A DNA stretch of 63,887 nt, the filler included, from Hausera hauseri (lineage: Eukaryota), in NCBI GenBank assembly GCA_046269625.1. It is 12 parts of 12 records of this genome, joined end to end, with 100 filler letters (N's around TTAATTAATTAA, not from the genome) between each part and the next. Parts side by side here need not be neighbours in the genome. Positions count along the whole stretch, not along the records: positions 32,327 to 38,283 come from JBJURY010163198.1; 11 more parts are not named here. One strand, written 5' to 3'. Of this stretch, positions 23,545-51,430 are shown piece by piece. The notes under the pieces were generated by a model. It searched no databases, had not been told where the DNA came from, and saw nothing but the letters and a program-made list of their open reading frames with translations. Both the position numbers and the translations under genes were made by a program. How positions within the stretch are numbered: position 1 is the stretch's first letter; each line of letters starts with the position of its first letter.

Positions 23545-23620
<76 letters not shown>
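23545..23620 (-). repeat. (TTA)n microsatellite 3' tail of the LINE
   Basis: About 25 perfect TAA units on the plus strand. On the minus strand they directly follow AATAAA. Confidence 0.92.
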
Positions 23621-24140
23621 TTATTTCCAACACAAAACACAAATACAATAATTTTTTCAGGAATACATATACACATACACATACAAATAGATTAGTTTTA
23701 CCAAAATTCTTTTTTTTTGTTGCGCGAGGTGGAAATTACCCTATCCAACTATGGTTAACCATGTCCTAGGATAGGTGATATCTTATAAATCTATGGTAAG
23801 TGAGCTCACATTAGTCAGTAGAAATAATTATCTATAATTATTTCTACAAAAACCAAATTACAATTCTTATAGTTTTCATATTCATTAGAAGTTATAAAAT
23901 AAATGAAATTAATTTAGTTACGTTACCTACATTTTCCCTTTTTTAAATAATACAACTACATAGATAAAGAATTGCATGCTCATACACAAAAACATCCCAA
24001 TAAACACAATATCCAATAATTAATTAAAAATAATATTCAGAATATTGAAAAATATATATTCGCAAACACTCATAAATTTTCCTATGTTATATTTTTTCAT
24101 TTTTACATGTATGCATTTTTCTCTAAAATCAAATAAATTT

Positions 24141-27104
24141 TCAATATGAGGAACAAGATATCAAGTCCTCTATGTGCTGTCTTCCTGCATTTATCAACCA
24201 TCTACTCACATGGTTCTTAAAAAGTGTAGTATTCAAGCTTTTCAAGTCACCAGGGAGCAGATTGTATATTTTTGGTGCTAAATAATTAAAATGTCGTTGG
24301 TAAAGGGCCTTCTTTGCCAACTGCGGCAGGAGCAAATGTCGGTTTCTCGTCGAATACTGATGGGCTCTTTCCTGCATACTGTCTCTGTTTTTATGTAATC
24401 TGGTCAAAATTTCCTTAGAGTACAGCTGCCTAATATCTAAAACTTGAAAATCCGCAAACAGTTGTTCAGAGGAATATCTTATTGTCTTCTTGCTTATTAC
24501 TTTTAATATTAATTTTTGTACGTTCAGCAAAGGACTCATGTGACTATATGAGGCCCCGCCCCAACCTACAATCCCATATGTCAGCAGCGATTGAACAATT
24601 GCATAATAAACAGTTTTTAGTGTGGCTTTATCTAAAACCGTTCTAAGTTTTTTAAATAAATAGACTGTCCTCCTGAGTCTTTTACAAAGTCCCCCAATGT
24701 GCTCATCCCAGCGCAGCGAGGAATCAATGATTATTCCCAGATACTTGACTGATTTTTTCCTAGTCACTGTTTGACAGTTAACTCTGCAACCGGACTCATT
24801 TACGCAGCTATGTACCACTAACTCCTGAAAAGTTGTTTCTCCATGAGCAGTTGGGGAAAAACCGAGGAAGAACGTCTTTTCATAATTCATGCTAAGCAAA
24901 TGCAAATCCAACCACTGCTTAACAATCCTGAGGCCCATCTCCGCCTTTCTCTGTACATCATTCCAGTTTGCACCAGAAAAAAGAATAACGGTATCATCAG
25001 CATATGCTACAATTTTGCCATCCACCAGTAGTTCACACAAAGGATTTATATATAATAGAAAAAGAATTGGCCCCAAGACTGTACCTTGTGGTACGCCGTA
25101 ATCCACAACTAACTTATCACTGAGGTGCCTGTTCACCCTAACTCTTTGGACCCTACCTGCTAGATAACTCTCAAAAAGCTTCAAAGCCACTCCCCTCACT
25201 CCCATTATATGTAATTTTGACAAAAGAATCCGATGTGATATTGTATCAAAGGCCTTCTTTAAATCTAGAAAAACAGCCAAAGTCTTTTCATCATTATTTA
25301 TGTTGCTTATAACATCAGTTAAAAGTCTATGGATTGCATCATTTGTGCCGCGTGATGAGCGAAAGCCAAATTGATTTTCCGATATCAGACCATGCCTGTC
25401 AAGAAACCCAACCAATCTAGATTTTATGCATTTTTCATAAATTTTTGATAAGGTACCAGTCAGAGAGATTGGCCTGTAACAATTTATATCACGCTTATCT
25501 CCACCTTTAAATATAGGACAAATTATGGCCTCTTTTAAATTCTGGGGGAAAACTCCCTCTACAAAAGATAGGTTCACAAGCTTAGCTATTGGTATACTTA
25601 ATACAGTTTTATTCTGTTTAAAAAAAGTTGGCTTTAGTTGATCTGGTCCTGAAGCACTATTACTTCTTAACTCGTCTATAATTTTAATTATTTCATTTTC
25701 CGTGACTGGTCTCAGAAAAAGCGACTGTGATAAGTTTTCTTCAGTTTTGCTGACCGGTTCCTTGGTTGGTTGCTGATGTGTCTTCAAAATTTTCTGAGCC
25801 AAATCAGATCCAATTTTAGTGAAGAATACATTGAAGGCATTAGCCATTTCTTTATCATTGTCCCCAGCATTTAATACTTTGCCACACACTACAACTTGCT
25901 TGATGTTTTCCTTGTTAACTTGATCATCTGTGATTTCCCTTATTGTTTTCCAAGTATTTTTTGAATCTTTTGAAAATTGTAATTTTCTAGCAAAATGCTC
26001 TCTCTTTGTACTCTCTATTAACTTAGTTAGTAAGTTTCTGTATCTTTTATAGTATTTTGAAAGCGCTTGGTTGTTTGGATTTGACTTACATAATTTGTGT
26101 AATTTATCACGCTTTCTTATTGAAGTTACTAGACCGAAAGATATCCAAGGTTTAAGTTTTCTATTATTATGAGAAAGTGTTTTTACTTGTTTACATTTAA
26201 AAATAACATCCTCAATTATCCTCATAAACTCCTGGAAAGCAGTCTCTACATCTGTTTGTAACATGACTGTATCCCAATTTAAATTTTGCAATAATGTTGA
26301 GGCTCTAGATTGATCTACTATTTCACAAAATGTTTCTCTCTGTATTTTTTTTATTTTGGAAACATGTTTAATACCGAGCATTGTGGTATAATGATCAGTT
26401 ATTGAGTTTTGAAAAACGATAGACTTCATTTCCATGTTAAAATTTACCAGAATGTGATCTATACAAGTGGCTGAATTTTTGCTGACACGTGTAGGCTGCG
26501 TAATACAATGAGTGAAATTATAACTGCTGAGCAGATTTTCATATTGTTCAATCTGTCGGTGCTGTGCCGGTTCCTTAGTGTTTATGTTTACATCACCAAG
26601 AAAGATGCAGTAATGCATTTTTTTTGTGTCAAGGATTTCATCTAGTTCAGTTATAAACTCTGATATATCATAATATGAAGGAGACCTATACAATGCTATT
26701 ATTGAGAATATATCCTTTTCAACTGAGAAATTAATAGATAAACAGTTTGCTTGACTGATATATGGTTCTGTAAAAGTTACATTAAATTCCGACTTGACAT
26801 ACACGACCACTCCATCATTTTGTAGCCTATTATTTTTTGTAAAGTGGGCTATATAACCTTGCATTAAACGAGGAATAAAACCATCAGCAATCCAGCATTC
26901 AGTTAATATGATAGCGTCAAAATTAACTTTCAACTCTTCCATTTGTATAAAAAATTCATCTATGTTTTTACAATAACTCCTGATATTAAAACTAACAATT
27001 TTTATATTGTAAGGTGTAAAGTCCCTTCTAACGCTTTCAGAATCCAGGCTAACCACTTCCTGAATATTTCTAAATGAATCCAACTCTTCCAATAATGGTT
27101 CCAT
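24141..27104 (-). CDS. LINE ORF2: APE endonuclease + reverse transcriptase (987 aa)
   Basis: APE motifs: SFNIRS, LTECW, GVVVYV, YRSP, LGDVNIN, PTR, CIDHI, TDH. RT motifs: YRPISL, QFGFR, FLDLKKAFDTI, GVPQGTVLGP, YADD, YLGI. CR1/L2-type C-terminus YYAIVQSLLTYG..WG. Uninterrupted. Confidence 0.97.
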   Translation of the reverse strand: MEPLLEELDSFRNIQEVVSLDSESVRRDFTPYNIKIVSFNIRSYCKNIDEFFIQMEELKVNFDAIILTECWIADGFIPRLMQGYIAHFTKNNRLQNDGVVVYVKSEFNVTFTEPYISQANCLSINFSVEKDIFSIIALYRSPSYYDISEFITELDEILDTKKMHYCIFLGDVNINTKEPAQHRQIEQYENLLSSYNFTHCITQPTRVSKNSATCIDHILVNFNMEMKSIVFQNSITDHYTTMLGIKHVSKIKKIQRETFCEIVDQSRASTLLQNLNWDTVMLQTDVETAFQEFMRIIEDVIFKCKQVKTLSHNNRKLKPWISFGLVTSIRKRDKLHKLCKSNPNNQALSKYYKRYRNLLTKLIESTKREHFARKLQFSKDSKNTWKTIREITDDQVNKENIKQVVVCGKVLNAGDNDKEMANAFNVFFTKIGSDLAQKILKTHQQPTKEPVSKTEENLSQSLFLRPVTENEIIKIIDELRSNSASGPDQLKPTFFKQNKTVLSIPIAKLVNLSFVEGVFPQNLKEAIICPIFKGGDKRDINCYRPISLTGTLSKIYEKCIKSRLVGFLDRHGLISENQFGFRSSRGTNDAIHRLLTDVISNINNDEKTLAVFLDLKKAFDTISHRILLSKLHIMGVRGVALKLFESYLAGRVQRVRVNRHLSDKLVVDYGVPQGTVLGPILFLLYINPLCELLVDGKIVAYADDTVILFSGANWNDVQRKAEMGLRIVKQWLDLHLLSMNYEKTFFLGFSPTAHGETTFQELVVHSCVNESGCRVNCQTVTRKKSVKYLGIIIDSSLRWDEHIGGLCKRLRRTVYLFKKLRTVLDKATLKTVYYAIVQSLLTYGIVGWGGASYSHMSPLLNVQKLILKVISKKTIRYSSEQLFADFQVLDIRQLYSKEILTRLHKNRDSMQERAHQYSTRNRHLLLPQLAKKALYQRHFNYLAPKIYNLLPGDLKSLNTTLFKNHVSRWLINAGRQHIEDLISCSSY

Positions 27105-27106
27105 AT

Positions 27107-28098
27107 TTATGAAACTAATTTATTTTTGTTTTCCCTGAAAATTCTATTTAAATTCCACTGCTTAAGCTCCTCTTCTGTTGTACAATCGAGCCTTTTAATG
27201 AGTTTTTCTACGGCATCATCTTCTCCTGTAGTTAAATACCTAAAACTATTTGTGTGTCTAGAGAGAGCTACAACAGCATGCGGTTCGCTATTATAAATTT
27301 CTTTTGATCGCGAATCTATTCTAACTAAAAGGACATTTTTTGAAGTCTGTCCTTGGGCCTCATGAACCGTAAGTATATTGATTCCTGTAAGCCTAAAACG
27401 ATACAAAGTATCTATTAATATACGCTTTTCTTTTTGGGTAAAAGTAAGAATCAAAGTATCTGATTCCAACTGGTAAAATTGACCGTTTTTAATTGTGGGC
27501 CATACAGATTTTATTTTACTACTTGTTGTTATAATATTTTCATAATAGCAAGACAAAGCATAACAGACATCTACAGGGCATCGGCGTGTCTTATCAATGT
27601 TCTCAGCAGGGTCACAGAAATTTGACAGTTTGGACCAGTTTGTTTTACTGTTTGTCCTTTCAATATATGGGATCTGCTTTGAATCGCCAACCACTACAAT
27701 TTCAGAGGCACCACTCAGAATTGCAACAAAACCTATATATCCTGCGTGCATTAATAATCCTTCGTCAATGTACACCCTGTCATAAGCCCTGCTTTTATGA
27801 TTTATAATATAGGACGCAACCGTTCTATAGTCTTCGTATAATCTTAGACTTTCCTTACTATCAGAAAACTGCTTGGCTACAGTCTCCCGAATGTCTTTAA
27901 CTCCAGCTCGTGTTTGACTTAGTATAAGATCCCTGCCAGGTTTATGATCGGAAACGATGTACCAGGTTTTCCCCGATCCTGGTACTCCTTCTATCCATTT
28001 TATTCTCGGCAATTTACTTTCATTAATTTTAAGTTTATTTATTTTTGAGGTAAGTTCCCCATTTAACATTAACTCAGTGTCACGTGTCACTAAAACAT
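27107..28098 (-). CDS. Viral superfamily-1 RNA helicase (alpha-like/virga-nege type), N-terminus truncated by gap
   Basis: Motif I GVPGSGKT, Ia LILSQTR, II YIDEGLL, III VGDSKQIP, IV TRRCP, V TVHEAQGQT, VI VALSRHT. The frame is open up to the gap. Confidence 0.95.
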
Positions 28099-28334: not shown

Positions 28335-29747
28335 TTAGTTTTTTGGAGGATTTGGAGGAAAGAAAGAAGAGGAAGAAAAGCTAGGAGAATTTCTGTTATA
28401 ATGTTTACAACCATGCACACATGATCTGGCTTGTGACTGATATTTGTTGTGGTATATACAAATAGGGTTATTTACAACGTATCGCTCACTAAAGAATCGA
28501 CAGCCCAAGACACATTTCCTTGCTTCCTTTCGAAAACGCATGTGGTAAAAACAAGTCATGCGTCCGCCAGGTGAAATTGACCGAAAAGAGTGCATTGAAG
28601 TGCTTCGCTCCCGTGAACGTCTGGTTTCACTTCGTCGAGGCCCATTAAGACTACTTAGTTGGCTAGTAATGGCCAAGATCGATTGTTTTATCATGTCAAA
28701 CTGTTGCTGCATCATTTGCAACTGTTCAGTAAAGAGTGTTGTATCTGTAGTTGGAGCACATGCGGTTTCAGCAGCAACGGGGAGAGAACTGTTAGTATAA
28801 AGAATCTCAAAAGATTTCTCAGCCATTAATGCCAGTTTTTTGATTGCCGTGGATTCGTCAACAACGGTCAGCAAGGCTCTAATTGAGTTGAGCAAAGACG
28901 ATAAAAAATAACGGCGAATTAAATCCGCGTTATTCGTAGGTGTCACTCCTAGCGCGCTGAGCTGTAGAATGGCTGTTTGGAGAAAGTCGGATGGTTTTTG
29001 GTTCCTTATCGCGTGGTCATTAAAATACTTTTGTATTATGTTGTCAATCGAAGGATCTGTGACATGCAGTACAGCTTCACAGAGTGTCTCGTAAGACGTC
29101 GATGATTGTAGCAACTCAGAAATATTGTTAATCTGCTGCTTGACGTTGGCAGGCAAAAGAATTAAAAGGCTATTGGCTCGCACAAAAGAATCTGTGATAT
29201 TGTTCGACTTTAGCCACTGTTGGTGGAATTGGAGCCATGGTTTGCTGGAGTTGTTCTTATCAAGGAAAAACTCCACACAAACCTAATTTAGCGAAACTTG
29301 GGACTGTTGGGATTGTGGCAGACGACAGATGTTGCCCGTATTCGTGGATTTATCATCCGAGCAAGACGGATTTAGATCCGATCCACCCCGGCGGTGAAAA
29401 TGGAGCATAAGGTGGATGACTAGACGTTCGTGGCACACGATAGGCAAGAGTGAGTCGGCGGGATGTACAGTGATACCTCGATGTGTGAAATAGAAAGTGG
29501 CAGTGTCGAGTAAAGAGGATAGAGAGGTGTATAGTACCTGCGTAGTGGAATTGATAGGAGCATTAATGGTCGTTATGTGTTGATTGTTATTGAAGATAAG
29601 AAAGGAAAGTTGCAGCGAAGCAATTCCAGGAGAATGGTAAAATGCAAAAGGAGCTTGTGCGGTTTGCTTCCGTGCTAACAAGATATGGGCGTGCAGCCGG
29701 ATAGCGGTGGCAAGTGATGCTTGGAGTAAAAGAGTGTCTAAAGACAT
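28335..29747 (-). pseudogene. Gypsy gag with in-frame upstream extension (one TAG at 29283)
   Basis: RNQKPSDFL, LIRRYFL..L, and two CxYH..Y...A..C...C knuckles. Homologous to gag 6200-7222. Confidence 0.85.
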
Positions 29748-30340: not shown

Positions 30341-31362
30341 CGGAACTAAACAATTGTCAAATTCGAGATCGGATTCGTGGTCGGGATCATTGGTTTCTTG
30401 ATTTTCCATTTCCTCAACGGCTTCTAGATTGTCAACTTTGCAGCTAACTTTACCAACAATTTCACCTAATTTCCAAATGGATATACTATCACAATTATCA
30501 ATGTTTATCTTTGGCATGAATTCCATATGATAATTTGGCGACACAAAAACGTGTTTGCTGTTGCAGTTGTGGGCAAGATGGCGGACATGAGAGGAATAAG
30601 TAGTGGTGTTTGTAAGTACGTCGTTAGCGTTATTGTTTTTACGCATCTCACTCAGCATAACATGTTGAAAGATTGTATCTTTGTTAACGGTAGTGAGGCT
30701 GTTTTTATCAGCGAGATAAAAATCTGAATTTGAACTGCTTTGAAGACAATCATGAATAGGTAAATTTATTTCAAAAATTGTCTGATGTCGAAGAAATATT
30801 GAAAGAATTGATAATAATTTAAAGTTTATTATCTGAACTAAGTGATGACGCAGCAGCAGAGCGGAATGTCGACAGTGGAGTCCTCTGACTCTGTTGCAGA
30901 AGCCTTTTAACCTGTAAAACCTGTTTCTAAAAAGGTGTTGATGGCGTTTGGGTTGTTGTTTTCAGTTTGATTGTTGTTAGGGTAGCAGAGTTGGAAAATC
31001 ACTTTACGTCATTGTGAAAATCATCATGTGATTGGAAAGACAAATGTAAAGATTTTGTGTTATTTTTATTAAGAGAAAATACATCAAAATTTGTAAATGG
31101 TGTCGCTGCCTTATTTAGCATACGATAACGGCGACAGAATGCAGCTGCTATACGCAGCAATGATTGATATCGTTCAAGAATAATGTCCTTTTCTTTACGT
31201 TTCAAAACCCCGATTTGTGATCGGTGTTATTCGAGAGACGTATCAAGTGTCAACAACCAACTATTTATGTTCCAGCATGAGATGCAAACTAACTCTGGCT
31301 GCCCAAATACCAAACCGGTATCGGAATTCAATATGCAATGCGCACAGAATCTCAGTGAATCA

Positions 31363-32226
31363 TTATACACTGCCTTGTGTCACGTACAACTGTGCCAGAC
31401 TTAATTGGACCTTAACGAGACTTTCATCGCCCATGGAGTTCTTTTCGATTGAATCAAGATAATCCTCAAGAAATTTTATAGCTTGCGATGTCTCCTTTTC
31501 TTTGCACAATTGGGCTGACTTCGTTAATACCGCTCGGATACAATCCGAACTGTGGACCAACAACTCCGAAGCCATGTTTTTAACAGAATCCCATTGGTTA
31601 CTGTAATAGAGAAAGAGAAAATTGTTCTCTTAAATAGCTTCGCGTTGCTTCGAAATCAGCTTTTGTAGACAGACATCGTTCATGGCTACTTTAATTTTAT
31701 TCCGACTATCGAATATGTTCTGATCTTGGTTAATACAAATAACCTTATTTGCAGAAACTCCCAATACGTCACCTTTACCGCACCTCTTCTTCGGAACATC
31801 ATGGTAAATAGTACTAGCTTTTTGTATTTTGTTCATTTTCTGTAAACAGTAAGCTCGTTGAACTCTTATTGTACAAAGTTCCTCATCCGTTTGACTTGGT
31901 GTTAAATCCTGTTCTTCTGATGAACGAATACACATTTTTTCGGCTTTGTTAAGTTTATTCAATGCAGCACCGTACTAAATCAGTGCAGCTAAATGACATG
32001 CTTTGTTGAAGTACGTTTCGTACAACGATTCTGGTACATTTGGAAATTCCTTCTTCCTTGCCAAAAATTGTGCTACAGCAGTTATAGTTTCACTCATATT
32101 AACAAACCTTTCATCCTTATATACATCTCTAATATTATTTGTCAATGTCTTGTACTTTTCCAATGCATCTTCGTATAATTCCTGCTTGTGCAGAATTTGA
32201 GCCAACTCCTGCCATCCGTATCTTGC
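31363..32226 (-). pseudogene. SRP72: Signal recognition particle 72 kDa subunit, disrupted
   Basis: AQIL...Y....KY..L.....D.Y.DER..N, E..FN.AC, L.KAE..C, EL..I.VQ.AY.LQ, V.AN....IN.DQNIFDS..K.K are collinear with SRP72. In-frame stops. Confidence 0.82.
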
Positions 32227-32326
32227 NNNNNNNNNNNNNNNNNNNNNNNNNNNNNNNNNNNNNNNNNNNNTTAATTAATTAANNNNNNNNNNNNNNNNNN
32301 NNNNNNNNNNNNNNNNNNNNNNNNNN

Positions 32327-34470
32327 ATCGTACTTGTCTTTGTTTTAAGTCTTGATAAGGCGTCTGCGTCTACATGTTTACTTCCGGGTTTATATTGAAA
32401 TTCGATATTGTACCGCGAAATTTCCTCAATCCATCGATTCAATCGACACGTCGGGTTATTATTCCTGCCCTTTAGTGTGGTAACAGCTTTATAATCGGTA
32501 ACTCTAATAATTTTCTGACCGTAGACATAGACATTAAAATGTCTCAAGGCTTCTTTTACGGCTAGTGCCTCTAAATCAGTGACTGAATAGTTTTTTCAGC
32601 TTTCTTAAGCGATCGTCCTCCATATGCAGTTGGATGCTCCAATTCTTCGTCTTCTCGTTTTTGAGCTAAATCGTAAACAAGTCCTTCCTTACTTGCGTCT
32701 GTTTTAATTATAAATGGTAAATTGAAATCCGGGTATCTTAACACTGGTTCACTCGTTAAAATTTTCTTTATTTCATCAAATGCTTTCTGTTCAACATGGA
32801 TCCATTTCCATTTTATGCCTTTTTTCAATAGACGATATAAAGGTGCATTTATTTTCGAACTGTCTGGTACGTAGGTGGCATAATATCCGCATAAGCCTAA
32901 CATATGTCTTTATTCTTTTTCATTTTGGAGTTCCATACAATCTGATATTTTGTTTAATAAGGATTTATCTGGCTTTGATCCTCCTTCTCCAACTATATGT
33001 CCAAGATAAGATACAGCATTTTGTGCCCATTTACATTTCTTTGGGTTCAGTTTTAATCCTGCCTGTTCCAATCACATAAGAGTATCTTCGATGTACTTTA
33101 GGTGTTCTTCTTCTGTTCTTGACGCTATCATTACATGGTCTAAATATGCGAACGCATGATCAAGTCCCATTAACATTTTATTCATCATTCTGGTGAAGAT
33201 AGCTGGGCTGGTTGTTATACCGAACGGCATGACATTAAATTCGTAAACTCCGTCGTGTGTCTTAAATGCAGTTTTATAACGGTCATCCTCTTCAATTTTC
33301 ACTTGCCAAAATCCTGATTGCAAATCTAAAGTGTTAAACCACTTTGCTCCTGATAATCGGTCTAAAGCTTCTTTTACTGACGGTAGTTGAAATGAGTCCT
33401 TCATCATAAGCGTGTTCAGGGCTTGGTAATCTATACAGAATCGATGTTTTGTGGTACCTTTTTTCTTGACCATAAATATTGGTAAGTACCAAGACCGGCA
33501 GCTTGGGCGTATTATGTCGGCCTTTAACATACATTCTACTTCTTTAGTTATTTCGGGCCTTAATGAATGAGGCGGTGGATACCATTTTGGCGTTTTTTGC
33601 TCTTCCAAATCGATTTCGTCGTTGGAGCGAGGTTTATTTTTTAATGGAATGGTTAGCCTTAATGTCTTTGCTCTACCTATGTATTCTTTGTTTTGAGCAA
33701 TAACCGATTTATATTTACAGAGTAATTTGTAAAATTGACAATACGCTTCTAGTGAAAATTTTGTTTCGACATGAGGTAGAAATTCGGCACATTTAAATGG
33801 CTTTTCCTCGATTGTTATTGCCGATACCTTATAAGTATGACCCAAGGTAGTATTGACATACAATTTTACGCGAGTAATTGCATTATTTACTATTCTGATT
33901 GGTATCCTTCCTTTTGTTACTCGTGTCAAAATGTTACTAAGTATGATATTTGGATTAACGTTTTCTTGTGGCTCAAAATATACCGGCTGGTCGTCTTCTT
34001 CTCGGATCTGGGCATAAATTAACATTTCGGTTATGGGTGGAATATATTCATCGACGGGGATCCATACTTCGCCTAGTTTCCTTCCTTTCATTATTTTAAT
34101 TCCTTTCGGTGGTCCGAGTTCAAGTAATTTTCCAGTCTGTACGTTATCGCAATATTGGGTAATTGTTTCAGTATGTCGCAACCTAATACTACATCATGGG
34201 TTAGGTGGTCAATTACGGCAAATTCATGTCGAAGAATTTGGCCCATTAGTTGAACTAAGGGAAACTATTTAAATTTCGGTTTGGATTCTTGCCCGAAGGC
34301 TCCTATGCTTCCTGGATTTGATGACGATGCTGGCTGCATTTGTTTCCGTAATATCGGCGGTATTGATTCTAATTTGATAAACGATTTTTCCAATCCGGTG
34401 TCGATTAAGGCATAGACTTCCTAATCGTCAATGGTAACTTGTGTGAAGGGTCTACCTTCCATAACTGTTC
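32327..34470 (-). pseudogene. Ty3/gypsy pol: protease-RT-RNase H (degenerate, cut by gap)
   Basis: ALIDTG at ~34400, RFCIDY, LDLQSGFWQV, KTAF, MPFGI, AYLDH (decayed YLDD), LGLCGYY, IKTDAS, TDYKA, YKPG..H..ADALSR. Confidence 0.93.
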
Positions 34471-34970
34471 CATAACAACACGACACGTCCTTTGGTCGTT
34501 TAACTGAAGAAATCTTATGTCCGTTTATCATTATTTCTGGTGATGAAATGATATTCTCGGTCAACTGTTTCAGTTCTTCGTTAGGGTATAAGTCGTTGAT
34601 TGTTACATTACCTGCGTTGTTTCTAATTAATGATTCTTGTATTATTGGGTTTTGAACCGATTTCAGTCCTTGTGTTCCCCAGACTCTTGATCTTGTCTCT
34701 ATATTACGAGCTATTCTCGGTTAATACAATATCCTCTGGTCATTTTCCGCTGGTCGTTGATTAGTTATTTGCATTTTCTTTAATACCCCATATTGTTTTG
34801 TATTATTGTAATACTCCGATTTATATGACATCATAGATGTTTTGTCGCAATCTTCATATATTGGAGCTGTGGGTGGAATAATGGGCCAGGGTGCATTGAT
34901 TACTGAATACATTTTGTGTCTGTTTTGTCTGAGGATTGTTTCTCCTTCCTTAGGCTAGTCGTCACCGGAG

Positions 34971-36900
34971 TCATTTCTTCGCGTTGTTAATTTTACGTTT
35001 CGATTGAAATGTGGGTCTTGCTCGTCGTTTATAATTATGGTAGCCGACATGGCGTTCAGCGTCATTTTTCCCTCGTTTTTCTTCATAGGCTTTAAGCATT
35101 TTGCCGAAAGGTGTTATAATTGCAGTTAGAATCTTGCAGAAAAACTCTATTAACGTGAGTATTTTGTACCCATTTATGACTGCTTGGATTACCGCTTTAC
35201 TAGTCCAGATGCGGCTTGTCCAAATATTAAAAATCTTTACGATATTTTGTAGAGTATTTCTGTGGTTACTCGCTGGTAATGGTTCGCACCAAGCAGGGAT
35301 TCCCATTTAGCCTGGTAGCGGGTATAGTCCCCTATGGTTGCCATGGCTGGGTTTAATTCCTGTGTTCGCTGTCATGGAAAAGCGAGAAATTTTCAAAAAG
35401 TTTCGATTTCTTTAGGCCTGTAAATACCATTTTGAGATGTATCCTAAAACTTGTCATCAGTAATTCCTTTTGCTAAATTATTTCCCGTTAGTTTCTTAGG
35501 AATGATAGTAACACTTCCATTAGGTAAGCTAACCCAATCTGTTTCACTACGCCTGAACATTGGTTCACCCAGACGTGCTTTGCAATCCATTAAAATCGTG
35601 GGGTGTGTTGCATTATCGAGCAACACTCTAGTGAGGGGAATGGCTAGATGTGGAGTATTCTGGTAGATTACAGGAAGCTCTTGTATGCATCGTTTTTCTT
35701 CGACGTCGATTGGTACATCTCTTTTCTGGCATTCATATGTCAGTACAACTTCGCCAGTAATTCGGCCAAAAATTCTTTCTCTCATAGGAATAATCGGCGA
35801 GGCTAACTCAGGGTTCGCATAAGTAAGAGCTAGTTTTGTCCTCCTAATCTCTGTATCCAATTTGCAGTCGTTAATTATCATCTTGTGGTATAATTCGGCT
35901 ATTCCGACTTGTCCTTTATAATAAAAATAGTCGTCTCGATTTTTAAGGTAATCTTCGATTCTAATATCTTGCGTTTCCAAGTTGTATGTTTCTGCGTTTA
36001 TCTCCGTTTCTGCGACAAAGAACACTTCGTAGATAGTGGTGAACATTACTACTTCGCAACGTGAAATCATTTTCTTTTTTTATGAATTTCAATACATGCT
36101 GATCAGAGATTAATATTGTGGGTGTAAAATGCTCTGATACATCTTCCCGTGCTCTTAAACAGATGTCAGATTTAATTACGTATCGTTTTCGGTAGTCTCT
36201 TTAAACTTCAATTCCTTAATTTTAATAAAGTTACATCCTTTTCCAGTGGGCGGTTCCCATATGAAGACAGAACTTCTAAAGGCACAGGTTCCGCCCTGTA
36301 TGTGACATCTTTGGTTCCCGGTATACAATTTAGTAACTCTATGGAACATCACTTTCTGTACTCGCATTTCTGATTCGTAAAAGTCCACTACTACTACGTT
36401 TGCTTCTAATCCTTTTCGGGTGTCGTATTCTGCTCCACTACAATGCCCGTTATGCATATTTAATCTTCCGACTACTATCTTGTATGCTCTGATTATTTTT
36501 CCGGGTTGCATTTTTAATTCCATACTATTTCATTTCAGTCTTCCGCTTTCTCTGGCCTGTTTGCAGTGTTGTCTTTCCAAATTTTTTGGAATCGGTGGGG
36601 TTGTTGGTTTGATTATCGAAGAATACTCGTGCATTATTCCACAGCGGAAAACACTGCGAGATTGTCTCAGCATAAACTCCATGCCATCCAAAGATATCAA
36701 CTCTTGTTATTGGTATAGATAATAACTCTTCTCCCTTGTTTCTAATTTATGTGGTTTAGCATCTTCACATGCTTCTAAGTCCATTAATGAATATTTTTGT
36801 CCAAGCTTCAATTTATCGCCATCGTAGACAGTAACAGCACCCGTTTGTTTTATCTGCATCATTATAGTGAGTAAACTGATTAACAAATTTGATTCGTTCT
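34971..36900 (-). pseudogene. Chuvirus-like (class III-type) envelope glycoprotein, fragmented
   Basis: Signal-like hydrophobic stretch, then VYDG...YSLMDLEAC, RSVFRCGIMH, QHCKQ..SG, NGHCSGAEY, NVVV, C....GTC....FIW....CNF, NDC, GRITGEVV..YEC..V.....C.QELPV, PLTRVL...DC...PMF, and a C-terminal hydrophobic VINGY region. This is the Cys/motif order of chuviral G proteins. Confidence 0.8.
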
Positions 36901-37559
36901 TCGTATTGTTATTATCTGTTGTCGTTAGATTTTGTATAATGTCTCCGAATACACTATTACTGTTCCTTTTGTCTTCTTCCTTATCAAATAATTTTGGCCA
37001 ATTTACTTCACACGGGAGTTTTCTAGATGCTCTTCGCGCCAAACTTGTGGCTCGATTTAGTTCATTTACTCGATTTGGATTTGTCTTGATTGCCAAGTAC
37101 AATAATACTTTTCTTAGCTCTTCTATCGTATTCTACACCATAATTTTTTCAACTACTGCGTCATCAGTTAAACTACTTTTTGACAGTTTGAAACGCGAAG
37201 TTCTCATTGTCCTAATTGCGTTAAATATCGCCTTTTCTTTGTCATGTAATGTATCTCTACAAAGACTTGAATAATTTACAATACGTATTAGATTCTTCAT
37301 TAGCTCGTTTAACTCTTCATTGTCGGTGCTGAAGGTAGGGATCTACATCTGTCTCAGCTCTCTAATTAACTCTCCATTTATAGTCAACTTCTCGGGGCTT
37401 CCTAGGTCTGCCGACTGGGCGTCTTGGTCTCGGAGCATTGGCTGCAATTCCATTTAGCGGCACTAGATTTTCGTTGTATTGTTCCTTGTCTTCATTCGTT
37501 TGTAAATACTCAAAATACATTGCAGCATCTCTTATTCCTATGATTTTTCCTACGCATTC

Positions 37560-38273
37560 TTACGTTTTAGCCTTCCGCGTGGCTTGTCCTTTCGTCTGAT
37601 CATTGGTTATTGTTACTACTATCCTATTTGTTTCACCGGGGATGATTCCTACGTCTATTAATTGTTCTAAATCGTCGACTGTTCTTCCTCTAAAATAAAA
37701 TCTGTAATTTAGTTCATTTGTTTCGCCGTTATTTAATAGCCATTCTCTTACGTCCTTTACGTAGAAATGCGTGGTTAGCTCACATTCTTTTTCGTCTGTC
37801 CAGTCGGATGATATCATTATTTTCATCGTTAACTCAGGTTTAGCCCTCAAAGTGTTCGCATATTTCTTCATCAAAAGTTTCGGCACCGTGCCGTAAATTG
37901 TGTTCTCATTAGCCAGTTTAGTCAAGGTCGGAATAAGTTGTCTTAATTTATTTTCAGAAACATTTACGTTAATTAATTCAATTAATTCCTTTTCAGTCTG
38001 CGCTGAGTCCAGGAGCATCTCCACGTTGAATTTCCTGTCCTGAGGATACATTTCTGTTTCATTTAGATGTACCGAAGTTACAGGATTTTCTGCCGTTATT
38101 GCTTCTAAGTAAGTATCCCATTCTGGTTCATTAGCAATATCTGAAAGTCCATAGTCTACTAAGGCTGTGTTCGTCCCTTGTACATTCTCTCGAATTTCTT
38201 TCAATTTTGGTTGTATTTCTTTCATCTGCGTAGTCCGGAAACCTATTCCGTTTCCACAGGCGTATTGAATCAT
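37560..38273 (-). CDS. Hypothetical protein with C-terminal ubiquitin-like domain
   Basis: MKIMIS...VKDVRE.L......YRFYFRGRTVDD...L.D.GI..G....IV aligns by eye with the ubiquitin fold. No diglycine. Confidence 0.55.
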   Translation of the reverse strand: MIQYACGNGIGFRTTQMKEIQPKLKEIRENVQGTNTALVDYGLSDIANEPEWDTYLEAITAENPVTSVHLNETEMYPQDRKFNVEMLLDSAQTEKELIELINVNVSENKLRQLIPTLTKLANENTIYGTVPKLLMKKYANTLRAKPELTMKIMISSDWTDEKECELTTHFYVKDVREWLLNNGETNELNYRFYFRGRTVDDLEQLIDVGIIPGETNRIVVTITNDQTKGQATRKAKT

Positions 38274-38383
38274 TTTCAGTAATNNNNNNNNNNNNNNNNN
38301 NNNNNNNNNNNNNNNNNNNNNNNNNNNTTAATTAATTAANNNNNNNNNNNNNNNNNNNNNNNNNNNNNNNNNNNNNNNNNNNN

Positions 38384-39320
38384 AACGCTGTTTTCAGCTT
38401 ATGGATGCCTACCAAGTTCTCAGCATATATGGTGCTGCTGTGGAAGTTAGGCTTGACAATATGCTTTTTTGTCCGTTTCTAGTCACATACTAGCTCGATG
38501 TTTATTCTGTTGCGGATATTCTCCATCGTCTTGCAAAAGACGCTTATTATTATACAGCTTAAATTGATTATTCTCGAAATCGTTCTTGGCATTTGTCCGC
38601 AGCTTGGTATTCAGATCAATATAGGGCTGCAGCCACATGGACTGGCTGAACTTTAGGGCTCTATGGACTTTAGTAATGCGGAGACCATGTTTAACTGCCT
38701 GCTGGAGATTAATGTAATGAACTGTATACCTTTCCCTATTACCCAGATGATAAAGCAGCTTTCGCTGCTTTCTATTGTGCGGTGGCCTGCTTTCAGAAAG
38801 GAAAGGCAGCTGTTGATGCCTTGTTTGGATGGAAGTCGGATATTCCATATCCACCTTCAGTATGTAGCCGATATCTCCAGTAGGATCCATGTCCAGGATA
38901 GGGATGTATTCAGGATGCTCTACGCACTTGAAATTATCATATGGCAATGGGGCGCGCATTGCCCATCCATACAAGTTGTTGGCATCCAGGTAGGATATAT
39001 ATGATGACTCCTTTGTTAAGTCGTAGTCAGCCATATACGTCTTGGTGGCCTCGCTATACCGGTGAATGGCTTGGCATATTCCCCATCTAATGTCTATTTT
39101 AATTAGAAGGATCATGTCGCAATGCTTAATGATTTGGAGCCTGATACCGGTGTAGTGCAGCATTGCTGCCCAGCTCATCCCTGGAGCCGTGAAGAAATGA
39201 GCCGGATTTAAAGTATAGCTCTTCATTGCAACATCCCTGAAACTTTCAAAAACATCTGTCAACAGCAGCACATCGGTTTGGAGATATATATCACTATATT
39301 CCCCTAATGTTCAGCATTAG
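38384..39320 (-). pseudogene. Protein-primed PolB fragment (second lineage)
   Basis: EYSDIYLQTDVLLLTDVFESFR, PAHFFTAPGMSW.AML, IR.GI.Q, YLDANNLYGWAM, GYILKVDMEYP, F.QS.WL.PYIDLNT.LR..AKNDFE, KL.NN. Confidence 0.92.
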
Positions 39321-39469: not shown

Positions 39470-40290
39470 CTAACATAATCGCTGTTGACCGAGTCAACCG
39501 AGGCATACGAGGCGTCCGTGGAGGATGATGCCAGGTAGTTTCAGAGACCGCGGAGTACACGGGTCGGAGCGTCGTCCGAACTCGAGTCCGACGGTGCGGG
39601 TTTTCTTGGTGCCGGGTCAATACATCGGCGACGAAGTAGTTTCGGTGCACTGCCTGGGCTCGAAGTCCTTCTAGGCATTCGTTGGTGATCTTGTCGTGTC
39701 GGGACTAACCCGCTGTCCGATGGTTCCACGGATTCTTAGAGGCGGTCGGAGGCCGCCATCAGTCTTAGGAAGACTGGCAGAAAAACCGACGAGTCAAAAA
39801 GGCGTCGATTTTTCCCGTCCTCGTAGAACCGATGAAGCGTGGTCGTCGGTAAGGCGTAGGGATCGTATTGCCCAAGACGGGTCAAGTGCCGTAAGAAACG
39901 GCTCCGTTGTAGGAGCTCCCGTACCGTTAGAAAGTCCGAATAAGACCGGTACGGGGCTGGACTGTTTGTGTCGCGACGGCGTTTTCCGCGGGAGGCGGTA
40001 TTCCGTTTGTTGGTGTGTAGCCATTTATCTGGTCGACCCGGGTCCAGTGAGGCGGTGCGGCTGTCGGCGTTATTGCCCGCCTTGGCATGCACCGGTCGGG
40101 GTATCTTGGGAATACGATACCCCGTAATCGGCATAGTCTTTCTGTCACCGAGGGTGGTGTTCGCTGCGTTGCTGTGTCGGCCGGGATGGCCTTTGTATCG
40201 TTCCGGGCAATTGGTTCGCCGGGTTTTGTCGTTTTGGCTGAGCTTAATTGCTCCGCGACATACTGGTTGGCCCTTGGATGCATCATGCCG
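39470..40290 (-). pseudogene. Unknown protein, repeated gene family copy 2 (disrupted)
   Basis: GYRIPK and TVRELLQRSRF...RRLFDSS.FLPVF.RLMAA are shared with 13212-13814. Shared SYAS C-terminal motif and downstream AATAAA. Confidence 0.7.
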
Positions 40291-44876: not shown

Positions 44877-47800
44877 TGCGTAGCGTGGACGTGATCGATG
44901 ATGGATGGCAATCGGGAGCATCTTTTCAATTTTGATTTTTGGATCAAAGAGTTGGAAAATCGGACTTAACTATGGGCATGACGCGGCGGCAGCGGACGTC
45001 CGGCCGTGCCCGACCAAATGGGCCAAAGGGCACCGGCCGCTGGAGGCACCACATCACCCCCCCCCCCGGTTGCAAAATGAAAACTACGAAGATCAAAACA
45101 GACTGAAAGAAAAAATCGCTAAATGAAAAATGTCTGTGTCAGTTGGTTTTAGTGTGGACAAGACTTTTGGTGCCTTCTGCTGATATTTCCCTGCTATACT
45201 TGCTAAATGTGACTCTGCGTGTTTGTCTTTATGCTGTGTGTTTGCTTGCAGAGGTTAAAGTTGGGGAAAAAATTTGTCAGATTTTGTTGTGAGTGTTGTG
45301 TCATGCAAATCCTAGTCAGAAAAAAGAGAAGAAGAAGAAATCGAAGTAGGAAGAGAGATTTTAGGAGATGGATGGTTGAATGTCTTCAAGAGAGTGTTGG
45401 AAGATAAAGGACTGAAAAGAGGTGTAGTGGCGGATGAAGAATGAGAGACGAAAAGTGGTGTAGAAATTGAAATTGTAGTGTGTGAAAGAGTAGAGGTAGA
45501 GGATGAAACAAAGGTAGTAGTGGAGAGAGGAAAAGAGATATGGATAGAAGCATAGATTAGAGGAAGTTGCGAAGCGGAAATTAAAAGGGTAAAAGACAAT
45601 GTGTGAGCAGAAAGGGAAAAGGAAAGCGCCGAAAATGAGGAAGGTGTGGACGGAGAAAGAGAGAGAGAAGAAGGCGGAGAGGGACAAAGCGGAAAAGAGC
45701 AAGAAGATGCAGAAGGCAAAGGAAACTAGTTGGAAGGTGGTATGCAAAAGGCTGGAATGATGAAAGGAATGGATGGAGAGATTGGTGAAGTTAAAGTGGT
45801 GTTTGGCGGAGGAGGTTTTGTAAAAGGAGAAAGAAAGTTGTCATCAGGGGATGGAGGAGGTGTTAGAAGGCTTGAAGTTGCAAAACCGGATGGGGAAAAG
45901 GAGGCTGAACTGTCAGAAGAAATTGAAGTAGAAGTCTTGGGAGAAAACGTAGGTAAAAGTGGATTAAGAAATTGAGCAGAGATGGAAGGTGAATTGTTGG
46001 ATTGCTGCGCGTCGTGTAAAGATGTTGATAGAGAAGTGGTTTCAATGGGAGACGTGTCCTCAATGAAGAAAGCCGGCTTAGCGTTTTTGATGTGAACTTT
46101 TACTTCTTTGTTGTCCTTGAGAATGATGATATTGTGAGAGTGTAAACGAATTACTTTGTAAGGGCCAACATACTAAAGTCGAAAACCACACGGTGTCTGA
46201 TTCTTTAGCCATACGAACTTGGCAGTGGATAAATCGTGGGGTATGTAAGGTTTATTTCCGTGTAATAGTCTACAAAATGAGTCTTTGCTGATAGCAACGA
46301 AGTGTCTCTGAGCCGCTTGTATGGTTTCGTCTGTAGGAATATTGTCCAGCTCAGCCAGCTCGAATAATGGTCTGATAGAGGTACCAAATAATGCTTCTGC
46401 AGGTAAACAGCCTGTAGAAGTTGATGGTGTGTTCCGCCAGCCAAGCAGAACGTATGGAATGAGTGTAGACCAACTGCGATTGGACTCAGAAAGGATTTTG
46501 AGAGACGTTTTCATCGTTTGTTGAAAGCGTTTGAGAAGGTCATTCGATTGAGGATCACATGGTGACGTGTGAATGTGATTAATTCCCAATCGATTGACAA
46601 GAGCTTTAAACAGGTTGGATTCGAACTGTGAACCTTGGTCCGAAATGATGTGGTGAGATGATCCAAACTTGCTAATCCAAGTGCGGATGAAAACGTCTGC
46701 GATGGATTTGTGTTGGTTCTCCGAAGCGGGACGGCCTCTGGCCATCGCGAGGAACGGTCCATCATTGTGAAGATGAACTGATGGACGTTGTCTAAAGGTA
46801 ATGGGCCTGCAAGGTCAATGTGAACAGGTTCAAAACGAGACGTGCAGGGAAAATGATATAGTGATGGCTTTAGGTGCTTTGTAACTTTGTGTTTTTGGCA
46901 TGGCACACACTGCCTAACCCATGCCTGCACGTCAGAGCGCATCGACGGCCATACTACTTGGCGTCGTAAGAGTCGAAAAGTGGCCTTGGTACCGGGATGA
47001 TGCAACGAATGGATGCTGTTGAATGCTTCTTTTTGAAGCGATTCAGAAAGTATGACTTTAGGATTATTAGGTTTAAAGGTGTCAAAGGACACACCGTCAA
47101 TGGTTTTGCACGATTTAAAAGATTTAAGGATGTCAAGAGGTGGCTGGTTTTGTTGAAGTTTGGATTGAGGGAAAATTGGTGTAAAATCAATCGAGCTGAC
47201 CGATCGGGACAAAAGGTCAGCTACTAAATTGTCGATTCCGTTTATGTGCTTAATTTCAAAATTAAATGTGGATAAGTACGATATTTGCCTCTCCTGACGT
47301 GGAGAAGGCGATTTCATTGTCAGGATTTGAAGCAAGGGCTTGTAGTCCGTTTGTATTGTAAAAGTTTGTGCAATTAGCAGATGTTTAAAGTTTTTTACGG
47401 CAAGGACCATTGCAAGCAACTCTCGGTCAAAGGTGGAATATCTTTGCTCTTTCGCCGTGAATTTCCGAGAGAAGAATTCTAATGGTTTATTGGATCCATT
47501 TTTGACTTGATGGAGGACAGCACCTGCAGGTGTTGTGGATGCGTCTGTGGTTAAGAAGAGTTCTGCATGGGAGTCGGGATAAGACAGGATTTCTACGGTT
47601 TTTAGATTATTTTTAAGGTGATCGTAAGCGTTGACTAGCTTGGCGGTCAATTGAATAGGCTGTTTTTTCTTGCCAGAGTTTAGGGATGCAAATGGAGCGG
47701 TTAGAGTGGAGCAGTGTGGAACATACTTATGAATAAAGTGCAGGGCTCCGAGGAATGAACGCATCTCTGTTGATGTACGTGGTAACTGTATGTTTTTGAG

Positions 47801-48268
47801 CTGTGTGATGCGGTCTGGCTGAGGTGAATGTACGGAGCAGCTAATAACATGTCCTAGGAAGTTAACCTTATGTTGAAAGAAAGAGCATTTGAAGAAATTA
47901 ATTTGCAAATTGTTTTGGTGCAAGCGCTGGACGATTAGACGTATGTGTTTGGAGTGTTGTTTTGAGGAAGATGGTGCAATTAAGATATCATCGATATAGG
48001 GATAGGCAAAGTCTAAACCTGAGAGAACTGTATCGATATGCCTTTGGAAAGTCTGAGAAGCGCTACGGAGTCCAAAAGGCATGAAGAGGTATTTAAAGAG
48101 GCCGAAAGATGTAATGACAGACGTTTTCGGAATGTCTAGTGAAGCCACCGGAATTTGGTGGTATGCTTTATGTACATCAATGCAGGAAAAGATGGTTGAA
48201 CTATGGAGCCTGTGAAGGATACGTTGATTAATGGTAGAGGGTAGGCATCCATTGTTGTTATAATGTTG
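44877..48268 (-). mobile_element. Ty3/gypsy element, 3' part (RT-RH-INT-S/P tail-PPT-3' LTR)
   Basis: 545-aa ORF 46511-48148 with YIDD, TDAS and HHCC. Integrase core continues frameshifted in 46173-46745, then GPY. G11 PPT at ~45057-45067 is followed by TG(A)TGTGGTGCC. Same family as 9107-12117. Confidence 0.95.
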
Positions 48269-48592
48269 NNNNNNNNNNNNNNNNNNNNNNNNNNNNNNNN
48301 NNNNNNNNNNNNTTAATTAATTAANNNNNNNNNNNNNNNNNNNNNNNNNNNNNNNNNNNNNNNNNNNNAAAAGGTCAATTTGGAATTCTGATCGATTTTT
48401 TGATTTTTTTGATTCAGATTTTTGGGTAATTAAGAGATCCTAACAACAGAAAATACTCAATTAATTTATTTAAATATTACTTCTAAAATTAATTTTATTG
48501 AAAAATTAAATTAAATTAAATTTATTTAATTTTGCTAAAAAATAATTTGTTTCAAAATTAATTTTAATTAATTCATTCTTAATTAAGAAATA

Positions 48593-51430
48593 ATGAAATC
48601 CAGAAAGAGAGCAGCAGTTCGAAACAATAATTTTGAAGATAGTGATTGCGAATATGATGAGTCAGAAAGAAGAAATGCAAAACGACGAAAGGCGGTATCA
48701 GAGTATATTTTAGATGAAGCCTCAGTGGCAGATGAAGATGAGGAATATGAGAGTTTTGAGGGAAATGATTATGTCGAATCATTGATAAACGATGATACTG
48801 ATGAATTTGACGAAGAAAATGAAGTTGACATTGGATTAAACCACAGACAAAATGACAACGAATTCAATCAGTTAATGGAAAAGAATGACGACGAGATTGA
48901 AGAATTCTTTGAAAACAGATATGGTGAATCATCTGTTCATCAATACGGAAATGGAAATGTAGATCGAGATGTTTCAAATCAACGTTTCCTTCCAACTTAC
49001 AAGGATGCCACAATATGGCAAGTTCGGTGCCATGTAGGAAAGGAAAGAGAAGCTGTGTTTAAATTGATGCAGAAATGTCAACATTTCTATACGAAAGGTG
49101 AACAATTGGGAATAATATCCTGTTATTATAGAAATTGTACTCCGGGAATTGTATACATTGAATCAATGAAAGAAAATTTTGTTAAAAATGCATTGATTGG
49201 AATAAAATGTCTGGAAAATAAGTATGAAAATATAAAAATAGTTCCAATTGAAGATCGTACAAATACGTTGAAAGTTGTAAAAGGAAGAACAGTGAAGATT
49301 GAAGATTTCGTAAGAATAAAGAAAGGTTTATACAAAGATGATTTGGCAAAAGTTGTCAAAATTGATGCAATTGACAATACAGTAACAGTAAAATTATTGC
49401 CACGAATTAACTACAAATCTCTTGGAAAACAACAGTCAAAGTCACGCAATGAACGATTTGTACGACCATCTGCGTCTCGATTCAATGCTGCTAAGATCGG
49501 CGAACTTGGATTTGAAGTGATTGTAAAGGGAGGATTAGCAAGATTCAAAAATCACGTGTACGATGAAAATGGCTTACTTCACATCAAAATGAAAATGGAA
49601 AACATTCAGAAAGATGATGTTCGACCAAATGAAGATGAAGTAAAACAATTCATTGATCAAAATGCCAATTTCAAAGGAAATCAAAACATTTTACAAGAAA
49701 CTAACCAAATATTTTACATTGGTGAAAATGTTATCGTAATCAATGGTGCCATGGAAACAATGGAAGGAGAAATTGTGTCGATAATGAATGGGACAATATA
49801 TGTGAGAACAAGTGACATTGACGAACCAATTGGGTTTCAAGAACACGAATTAGAAAAACGTTTCAAAACGGGTAGTCATGTTCAGGTATGTTCTGGTGCA
49901 CATAAGGGAGACACTGGAATTGTCGTAAACTCCAAAGGTTCTCTAGTTTATGTCTTAAATGAAAGTAGAACAAGTCAATTTGAATTATTATCGAGGAATT
50001 TGGTTCTGTTAAATAAAGATTCATCAGATATCATAAACAACAGTCAATTCCAAATTGGAAAACTCATTTCCATTGATCCAAAGACAGTAGGGATTGTTGT
50101 AGAAATTCAACATTCATCCATTAAAGTATTGACAAATGATAATAAGATAGTGACATTTGATAAAAATGAAAATTTCAAGGAAATTGTAAACAAGAGGTGT
50201 GCTGCATTGGACACAAACAAAAACGAAATCAGACTGAACGACATAGTCAATGTCATTAGTGGAACAAACAGTGGTAAATCTGGACAAGTGAGACACATTT
50301 GGAAGGCCTTTGTGTTTATCCATTTTGGTCAACTTCAGAATCAATGTTTCGCTGTTGTAAAGGCTGCTTGTGTTAGTAAAAAAGGAGCTGTGATAACATC
50401 CAAGCAAAAACCCAGTTCACCCAAGAGAAAATTCGGAACTGAAGAGAATAAAAATCAGAGACGTGAACAATTCAAAACCCCATTTCCAACACAAAATGAC
50501 AGGAAAACTGTTGGGTCCACAGTGAAAATTATACGAGGACCACTGAAAGGATCAGTTGGAATTATCAAAAATATTTTAGTCGGTGAATCCAAAATTGAAC
50601 TTCATTCAACATTCCGCACCGTCGTAGTGAAAAAAGAAAACTACATCATTTGTGGCGAGAACAATCAAATAACACATTCAACAAATGAAAATTTGTCAAT
50701 CAGATCCAATTCCAATTGCAGTTTAAACAGAACTCCAGTTTTCCAAAATCACTCATCTGCATCAAAGACTCCACAATATGGTGAAACAACTCCGTTTTAT
50801 AAAAATTACGAACCAAGTCAAATTCCGACGATGAATAACTTTTCTACACTTTCTTCAACAACTCCTTCCCATGCGGCATTTGATCCAATTGGATCCACTC
50901 CAATTTATCCAAATTATGCATCTTCGTCTATGGATAACAAATTGAATGGTATTCGAGATTTAGATGCTGCTGATGAATCCAGTAGTTCATTTCATAGAAA
51001 TCTGAATGAAAAATCAGTTTCCTTCAGTCCAAGAACACCAATTCTGTCAGATGGCATAGATGGTGAATCATTTACCAAAGTATTTTCTAAATCTCCATGT
51101 TTATTGAAGGAACATGTTGTTCAAAATGCAGAAGTTTATGTTTGTAATTCTCAAATAGCCAATGGAGAAAAAGGAGTAATAGTTGGCAATGTTTCTGACA
51201 AAATTACTGTACGGTTGTTACGTAACAACAACACAGTTCATGTTTGTTTAAATGATCTTCGACGAGTTGTTCCGATTGCTGGAAATCGAGTATGTATCAT
51301 TACAGAAAATTCACATTCAAATACATTTGGAATTTGTATGTCAATTGATGACTTAGAAGTCTGTGTGAAAAAGGATGATGGGAAATTGCGATTGTTAAGT
51401 CCAGATAGACTTGTAACAATTCGACAATGA
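48593..51430 (+). CDS. SPT5: Transcription elongation factor SPT5 (DSIF large subunit), intronless, 945 aa
   Basis: Acidic N-terminus (YILDEA.V), LPT.KD..IW.V.C..GKERE NGN domain, KOW1 VRIKKGLYKDDLA.V...VKLLPRINY, further KOWs (KRFKTGSHV.V.SG.HKGDTGIVV; VKIIRGPLKGSVGIIK...ELHS), short CTR (KTPQYG, TTP) and terminal KOWs. AATAAA follows the stop. Confidence 0.95.
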   Translation: MKSRKRAAVRNNNFEDSDCEYDESERRNAKRRKAVSEYILDEASVADEDEEYESFEGNDYVESLINDDTDEFDEENEVDIGLNHRQNDNEFNQLMEKNDDEIEEFFENRYGESSVHQYGNGNVDRDVSNQRFLPTYKDATIWQVRCHVGKEREAVFKLMQKCQHFYTKGEQLGIISCYYRNCTPGIVYIESMKENFVKNALIGIKCLENKYENIKIVPIEDRTNTLKVVKGRTVKIEDFVRIKKGLYKDDLAKVVKIDAIDNTVTVKLLPRINYKSLGKQQSKSRNERFVRPSASRFNAAKIGELGFEVIVKGGLARFKNHVYDENGLLHIKMKMENIQKDDVRPNEDEVKQFIDQNANFKGNQNILQETNQIFYIGENVIVINGAMETMEGEIVSIMNGTIYVRTSDIDEPIGFQEHELEKRFKTGSHVQVCSGAHKGDTGIVVNSKGSLVYVLNESRTSQFELLSRNLVLLNKDSSDIINNSQFQIGKLISIDPKTVGIVVEIQHSSIKVLTNDNKIVTFDKNENFKEIVNKRCAALDTNKNEIRLNDIVNVISGTNSGKSGQVRHIWKAFVFIHFGQLQNQCFAVVKAACVSKKGAVITSKQKPSSPKRKFGTEENKNQRREQFKTPFPTQNDRKTVGSTVKIIRGPLKGSVGIIKNILVGESKIELHSTFRTVVVKKENYIICGENNQITHSTNENLSIRSNSNCSLNRTPVFQNHSSASKTPQYGETTPFYKNYEPSQIPTMNNFSTLSSTTPSHAAFDPIGSTPIYPNYASSSMDNKLNGIRDLDAADESSSSFHRNLNEKSVSFSPRTPILSDGIDGESFTKVFSKSPCLLKEHVVQNAEVYVCNSQIANGEKGVIVGNVSDKITVRLLRNNNTVHVCLNDLRRVVPIAGNRVCIITENSHSNTFGICMSIDDLEVCVKKDDGKLRLLSPDRLVTIRQ

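Follow-up and report, generated by a model that had tools for sequence, protein, structure and literature searches.

How does a fusion glycoprotein of the chuvirus kind come to lie ahead of the polymerase genes of a gypsy-type retroelement? The question is raised by one of the 12 joined contigs in a 63,887-nt stretch of the Hausera hauseri assembly GCA_046269625.1 (the whole stretch is hereafter the window): a 5.96-kb piece (JBJURY010163198.1, 32327-38283 in window coordinates), cut by the assembly at both ends and flanked by N-linkers at 32227-32326 and 38284-38383. The contig is an internal piece of a Ty3/gypsy-type retroelement, broken by stops and frameshifts, and the element has a layout that is already described, being a decayed, divergent family member of the Burro-like, or GAG-ENV-POL errantivirus, kind. 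Its intact form was very probably one giant Burro-like polyprotein running from Gag through ubiquitin-like (Ubl) and accessory modules, a class III envelope (Env), protease (PR), reverse transcriptase (RT) and RNase H (RH) to integrase (IN). Because the contig is cut at both ends, gag, integrase and the long terminal repeats (LTRs) are out of view.

A class III glycoprotein ahead of pol

All of the parts named in the original prediction are present on the minus strand, on which every feature of the contig described below lies. In coding order these are a ubiquitin-like module, an AT-hook-like motif, a helical domain, the glycoprotein (G), a linker, the protease, a spacer, RT and RNase H. The glycoprotein (35065-36889) is of the chuvirus G/herpesvirus glycoprotein B (gB) type and is interrupted by stops and two frame excursions; it matches PF24664 (Monjiviricetes_fusion) over 36877-35198 (E 3e-36, read in the frame that G shares with linker and protease, with stops as X) and retains 12 of the 14 cysteines conserved in its clade. 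An internal signal segment stands at ~36889-36838 and a damaged C-terminal membrane region at ~35240-35100. The glycoprotein originally proposed is thus real, but it starts near 36889 and not at 37102, since the first 70 codons of its first piece (37102-36890) fall in the helical domain that precedes it.

Structure prediction had been suggested as a check on the glycoprotein, and the model, built from a 9-row alignment and partly confident (predicted local distance difference test, pLDDT, 51), matched both chuviral G (E 3.5e-23) and herpesvirus gB folds in Foldseek. The best viral matches were chu-, qin- and xinmovirus glycoproteins (E ~1e-23 to 1e-21), nyamivirus G was also matched, and 97 PDB matches were found at E<=0.001, all of them herpesvirus gB among the matches listed (best E 4e-10). 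TM-scores of this pLDDT-51 model were low, at 0.14-0.24 for the PDB and up to 0.42 for the viral library, and a PDB sequence search with the G profile gave no glycoprotein match. G thus belongs with the class III fusogens, and among them with the gB/chuvirus type; the PF24664 match, the fold matches and the frame statistics below together bear out a chuvirus-like glycoprotein 5' of pol in a gypsy-type element.

The Pol side is conventional in its order, PR-RT-RH-IN with an LTR-type RNase H, of which PR-RT-RH is on the contig and IN is seen in relatives only. A retroviral-type aspartic protease with its DTG motif at 34402 occupies 34160-34459 (PF00077, E 7e-5). RT follows at 32980-33470 (PF00078, E 3e-26; the lower bound is approximate), with an in-frame stop and a catalytic motif that is degenerate in this copy (33146). 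The RNase H, of LTR-element type, lies at 32410-32804 (PF17919, E 5e-20; PF17917, E 3e-13) and changes frame part-way, near 32590.

A shared reading frame from glycoprotein to protease

Are glycoprotein and Pol parts of one coding sequence? The three G pieces, the linker segment at 34912-34721 and the DTG motif had been said to share a reading frame, and this was confirmed. Of the 1096 codons that it spans between 37381 and 34094, 23 are stops, compared with 73 and 102 in the two other frames; in 1000 base shuffles the best frame averaged 70 stops and never fell as low as 23. Over the 323 codons of linker and protease it has 4 stops, where the other frames have 20 and 34. The frame is common to the named pieces but is not continuous, as coding exits and re-enters twice. 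The first excursion (~36160-36075) is backed by weak matches to relatives; the second (~35195-35065) holds the sole strongly hydrophobic segment (35162), in another frame. The Ubl open reading frame (ORF), RT and the last part of RNase H also lie in frames other than the shared one. About seven frame changes, placed by stop clusters and homology, lie near 37380, 36160/36075, 35195/35065, 34140 and 32590. With these, its many stops and its degenerate RT motif, the window copy is dead and unable to make the protein.

The linker itself (34460-35062), a cytoplasmic tail of Env or an unconserved stretch between Env and protease, is coding, with a frame that is largely open and a depth like that of its neighbours in the one public run (X1) in which the element was found. 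It has no match to relatives, and neither gag, an LTR-like repeat nor a direct repeat family was found in it; CCHC is absent from all six frames of the contig, in keeping with the original prediction that no CCHC gag lies between G and protease. An LTR or target-site duplication border in 34470-34970 would point to a nested insertion, but neither a repeat family nor, among the joints listed, a dominant joint appeared there. Because the frame is largely open across the linker, depth is alike on both sides and no repeat lies there, the arrangement is not a nested insertion. The same points speak against a chance juxtaposition, in which a chuviral glycoprotein from an endogenous viral element or another element came to stand beside or in a gypsy pol, or in which the assembly formed a chimera; moreover, G and RT retrieve the same relatives, which carry both in one ORF. 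Juxtaposition could draw on the linker's want of a homologue among relatives, on an RT depth above G depth in X1 and on the fragmented assembly, but it is largely refuted and we regard it as highly improbable.

Relatives carry the envelope inside a polyprotein

If the contig is part of a polyprotein, where does its glycoprotein come from? Searched with HMMER, the longest G piece returned 134 proteins, to which a second search added 6 and a cluster look-up 3. A word-indexed search for longer proteins gave 486 candidates, none significant, and a scan of viral contigs with a G piece gave 5 pattern matches with no relative among them. A tree was built from the window G and 87 other G domains (53 of 140 G matches, shorter than 380 amino acids (aa), were omitted, P0033 included). 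It groups the window G in one clade with 24 relatives (FastTree support 1.0) and sets it off from the other 63 proteins, most of them 400-1100 aa long; the window G is nested among other polyprotein-embedded Gs. From G, the same ORF continues into the protease in 19 of the 24 and into RT in 11, and in 10 it extends to an integrase directly after RH; 5 of the 24 stop in or at G. CCHC knuckles lie upstream of G in 10 of the 24, and P0017/P0140 have a weak Retrotrans_gag match. The 4057-aa P0153 strings CCHC-Ubl-AT-hook-like-G-ankyrin-PR-RT-RH-IN in one series.

As relatives carry a CCHC Gag upstream and run on into Pol, the parent of the window copy can be read as Gag-accessory-Env-Pol, with Gag past the contig end. 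The frame statistics and the relatives with G to PR in one ORF support the single polyprotein that the original prediction had put forward. Of its ancestral X-G-PR-RT-RH, order and polyprotein stand, but X includes a normal Gag. An independent env capture by the window element is not borne out, given the nested position of its G; in the tree, G appears to be inherited with its clade and not freshly captured. Because this set was gathered with the window G as query, the tree shows inheritance within the clade and not the original source of the capture.

The same relatives bear on another origin, in which endogenous copies would stem from an animal virus that resembles pararetroviruses and lacks an integrase (glycoprotein plus PR-RT-RH). 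The contig indeed has no integrase or LTR, and its accessory genes resemble viral counter-defence cargo. However, the contig stops just past RNase H, where an integrase would start, and 10 of the 11 RT-reaching clade relatives also have an integrase, P0013 alone ending at RNase H. We give such a virus hardly any credence.

Two further observations concern the relatives themselves. In several of P0138, P0149-P0151, P0153 and P0014 the aspartic-protease motif occurs more than once (as many as 5 times in P0138), in part past the integrase, and some of them carry ankyrin repeats or C2H2 fingers, in ORFs of 2300-4800 aa. P0007 (HBK71150.1) is a CCHC-Env-PR-RT-RH-IN polyprotein of 2627 aa that was entered under a Flavobacteriaceae metagenome-assembled genome; it is likely animal DNA contaminating a bacterial bin.

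Accessory modules

What does the element carry besides Gag, Env and Pol? A helical plus ubiquitin-like module (37604-38000, inside ORF 38282-37560) matches a 9-relative profile at E 2.5e-19 and, pairwise, P0153 703-844 at E 7e-8; residues 769-835 of P0153 match PF00240 (ubiquitin) and PF11976 (Rad60-SLD), both below curated cut-offs. The window copy itself has no direct match to Pfam ubiquitin, and a PDB sequence search with ORF1 gave no ubiquitin match. The module is common to 9 of 18 long relatives (E<=0.01), where it lies between Gag and G and always upstream of G. By way of its relative P0153, the element can be credited with a putative ubiquitin/SUMO-like domain upstream of env. Next comes an AT-hook-like motif (37400-37427, with its GRP core at 37412), a label that we assume from the reading of the motif; 7 of the 18 long relatives have a similar GRP motif ahead of G. 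Directly before the envelope signal, 36920-37381 gives an all-helical, low-confidence single-sequence model (pLDDT 39) and occupies the position of the Bcl-2-like domain in Burro and some relatives. In 3 of the 18, a W..GGW-type motif speaks for such a Bcl-2-like domain ahead of G. Between PR and RT, a conserved spacer (33692-34067; 7-relative profile, E 3.7e-16) has the position of the dUTPase-like domain of Burro.

Comparison with known elements

Does this layout mark a new lineage, as originally proposed? This is not supported: the order Gag-Ubl-BCL2-Env-PR-dUTPase-like-RT was published in 2019 for Burro/GYPSM1, giant Ty3/gypsy LTR retrotransposons of dugesiid planarians (Arkhipova and Yushenova, 2019; PMC6431247). 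As described there, Burro is ~30 kb long and of high copy number, with copies decayed by stops and frameshifts in D. japonica; its 4873-aa ORF encodes Gag with CCHC knuckles, a PF11976 Ubl, a BCL2-like domain, env, PR, a dUTPase-like domain, RT, RH and IN, and its env matches arthropod and fish mononegavirus glycoproteins (PMC6431247). The window element and its relatives share with that description an env that stands in frame between gag and pol within a single ORF (window frame plus relatives), a mononegavirus-type fusion glycoprotein with a Ubl/SUMO-like domain upstream, a domain interposed between PR and RT, a high copy number with decay of copies, and ORFs in relatives of up to 4844 aa (PMC6431247). 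Unlike in Burro as described, MATH, BIR, ankyrin and midasin-like cargo is absent from the 6-kb window piece (PMC6431247).

A second published group has a similar layout. GAG-ENV-POL 'ancient errantiviruses' with an HSV/gB-type env are reported from Platyhelminthes, Bryozoa and Nematoda, with 9 flatworm and 10 bryozoan elements in supplement 1, and gB-type, chuvirus-like env beside gypsy pol is reported from many phyla (Chary and Hayashi, eLife; PMC13524379). The window element resembles them in its Ty3/gypsy pol, in a gB/chuvirus-type class III env ahead of pol and in an ectodomain between two hydrophobic segments (PMC13524379). Polyprotein fusion, ubiquitin and Bcl are not mentioned in the main text of that paper, and its genome list, in the part available, has no Xenacoelomorpha entry (PMC13524379). 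The layout may have converged, the window element belonging to a GAG-ENV-POL errantivirus lineage unrelated to Burro. In favour of this, the order is non-monophyletic in the Pol tree, its elements being spread over several Pol clades (PMC13524379), the Bcl-2-like and dUTPase-like identities in the window lack significant scores, and a planarian host is not established. Against it, the Ubl between Gag and Env, with the same PF11976 in P0153, and the Bcl-2-like domains ahead of G (P0012, Pfam E 1e-3) and ankyrin repeats of some relatives match Burro's unusual cargo; for that reason convergence is hard to accept, and we think it unlikely.

Chuviral glycoproteins also occur in other LTR retroelements. 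BEL/Pao elements named Anakin are said to carry a chuviral G (Dezordi, in 2020), and there env presumably stands after pol, unlike in the window element. Anakin has thus taken up the same glycoprotein family, but its pol is of BEL/Pao type where that of the window is gypsy-type. The Anakin elements with chuviral G are cited in PMC13524379 and PMC12440569. Kuafuorterviruses/Troyka, which like the window element are animal LTR-like retroelements outside the textbook clades, were considered and rejected as an identity: the available descriptions give no env, and their RT motif is IADD/VADD/LADD against YxDD in the relatives (PMC11673190; PMC12440569).

Copies in a public run, and points against the Burro-like reading

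How far has the family spread in its host? The contig is an internal fragment of one decayed copy, and 18,197 contigs of X1 match the element, together covering all 30 bins along it. Most of the X1 contigs placed on the element are 80-95% alike. X1 also carries the contig with the host gene SPT5, at a depth of ~19, and no RNA run was among the listed holders of the stretch. Depth in the Ubl, G, linker and protease bins is 2.6-12.6 thousand against 19 for SPT5, and the ratios of 130-650x (median ~300) are read from summed contig depth, which is not true copy number, in a run that is possibly the window's own source. A few hundred copies is the likely size that the family attained, which is for those two reasons an estimate. 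RT-region depth exceeds G-region depth, which would fit if sequences of other gypsy families cross-mapped there at 80% likeness. The X1 copies differ from the window copy at 4 of its stop codons (among 40 sites listed) and are longer or shorter than it around 4 of its frame changes; since other copies differ there, those stops and frame breaks are specific to this copy.

The limit on copy number weighs against the Burro-like reading, as do several other results. None of the X1 contigs listed spans from G to protease. The likeness to Burro rests on architecture and a published description and not on phylogeny. An RT phylogeny had been proposed as a check; RT-RH has 41-46% identity with the gypsy-order, env-pol relatives and 29% with a different gypsy element of the window, but in an RT tree of 15 rows, without named references, the window element sits on a long, weakly placed branch. 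PR or RT precedes G in none of the 24 clade relatives, as the original prediction would have it, but the distant match P0033 has the opposite order, with RT-RNase H ahead of G. A Bcl-2-like profile scored no significant match to the helical domain (97 of 1000 shuffles scored as high), a pairwise search of that domain returned no Bcl-2-like match, and Pfam and PDB sequence searches found no dUTPase homology in the spacer. Finally, Gag, integrase and LTRs lie off the contig. With these points counted, we still hold the giant Burro-like polyprotein to be very probable.

Other features of the window and the host

The other contigs hold animal-type genes (LIM, peptidase M13, kinase, SPT5) and many mobile elements, and the host is likely an invertebrate animal. 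The SPT5 ORF (48587-51430, +) runs uninterrupted for 947 codons, is 23-29% identical to 7 database matches and has a low, even depth in X1. Its best PDB matches are chains of 1087 and 1107 aa (334-337 bits against 184-248 for the others), which we take to be mammalian. This gene may point to a fast-evolving animal host.

A gypsy family that looks env-less is represented at 5645-7218, 9580-11995, 18683-19661, 28335-29282 and 45726-48268 (67-81% alike in DNA), one copy having a weak DUF7041 gag-like match. At 23545-28098 (-), an ORF for a viral superfamily-1 RNA helicase (PF01443, E 5e-32) lies immediately before an open non-LTR endonuclease-RT ORF of 992 aa (27119-24141) and overlaps it; helicase captures are reportedly found in insect long interspersed nuclear elements (PMC4686597; PMC5563155), and the window host may not be an insect. 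Organellar/viral, Polinton-like type-B DNA polymerase fragments (PF03175) lie at 38483-39310 (-) and 2458-2937 (+). The first adjoins an ORF at 39736-40290 (-), possibly a Polinton-associated gene, which by eye has a conserved block of ~70 aa in common with an ORF on a different contig (13188-13814, +) that has no Pfam match. A decayed tetratricopeptide-repeat-type gene at ~31300-32226 (-) has a weak ARM_TT21 match as its only one in Pfam and resembles, by eye, what we take to be SRP72. A scan of the window against Rfam gave 0 matches.

How the element may have worked, and what it means

In an intact copy, the polyprotein would be threaded through the endoplasmic reticulum membrane with two crossings, at the internal signal segment and the C-terminal anchor, so as to leave G luminal and the Gag, accessory domains and Pol cytosolic. 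Host signal peptidase and the element's own protease would cut the chain into its parts. The RNA would be packaged by Gag and, as in other LTR elements, reverse-transcribed and inserted into the genome by RT and integrase; G on budding particles could mediate fusion with other cells and thereby cell-to-cell spread, from soma to stem or germ cells. The Ubl and Bcl-2-like accessory modules may act on host ubiquitin or apoptosis pathways.

An env ahead of pol in one polyprotein breaks the retroviral gag-pol-env rule, and the layout implies equal amounts of Gag, Env and Pol together with a membrane-spanning precursor. The roughly two dozen relatives in metagenome assemblies suggest a group more diverse than the few named planarian elements. 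It is conceivable, and we raise it only tentatively, that the fast-evolving host lies outside the recorded phyla and that the Burro-type elements, with their membrane-spanning Gag-Ubl-Env-Pol polyprotein, are a broad, old, virus-like lineage of the Metaviridae. Were this so, the lineage would have kept one inherited class III envelope with swappable anti-host cargo (Ubl, Bcl-2-like, AT-hook-like, ankyrin, C2H2 and tandem proteases), and Burro-type elements would be no planarian oddity, having expanded to hundreds of copies in this host.

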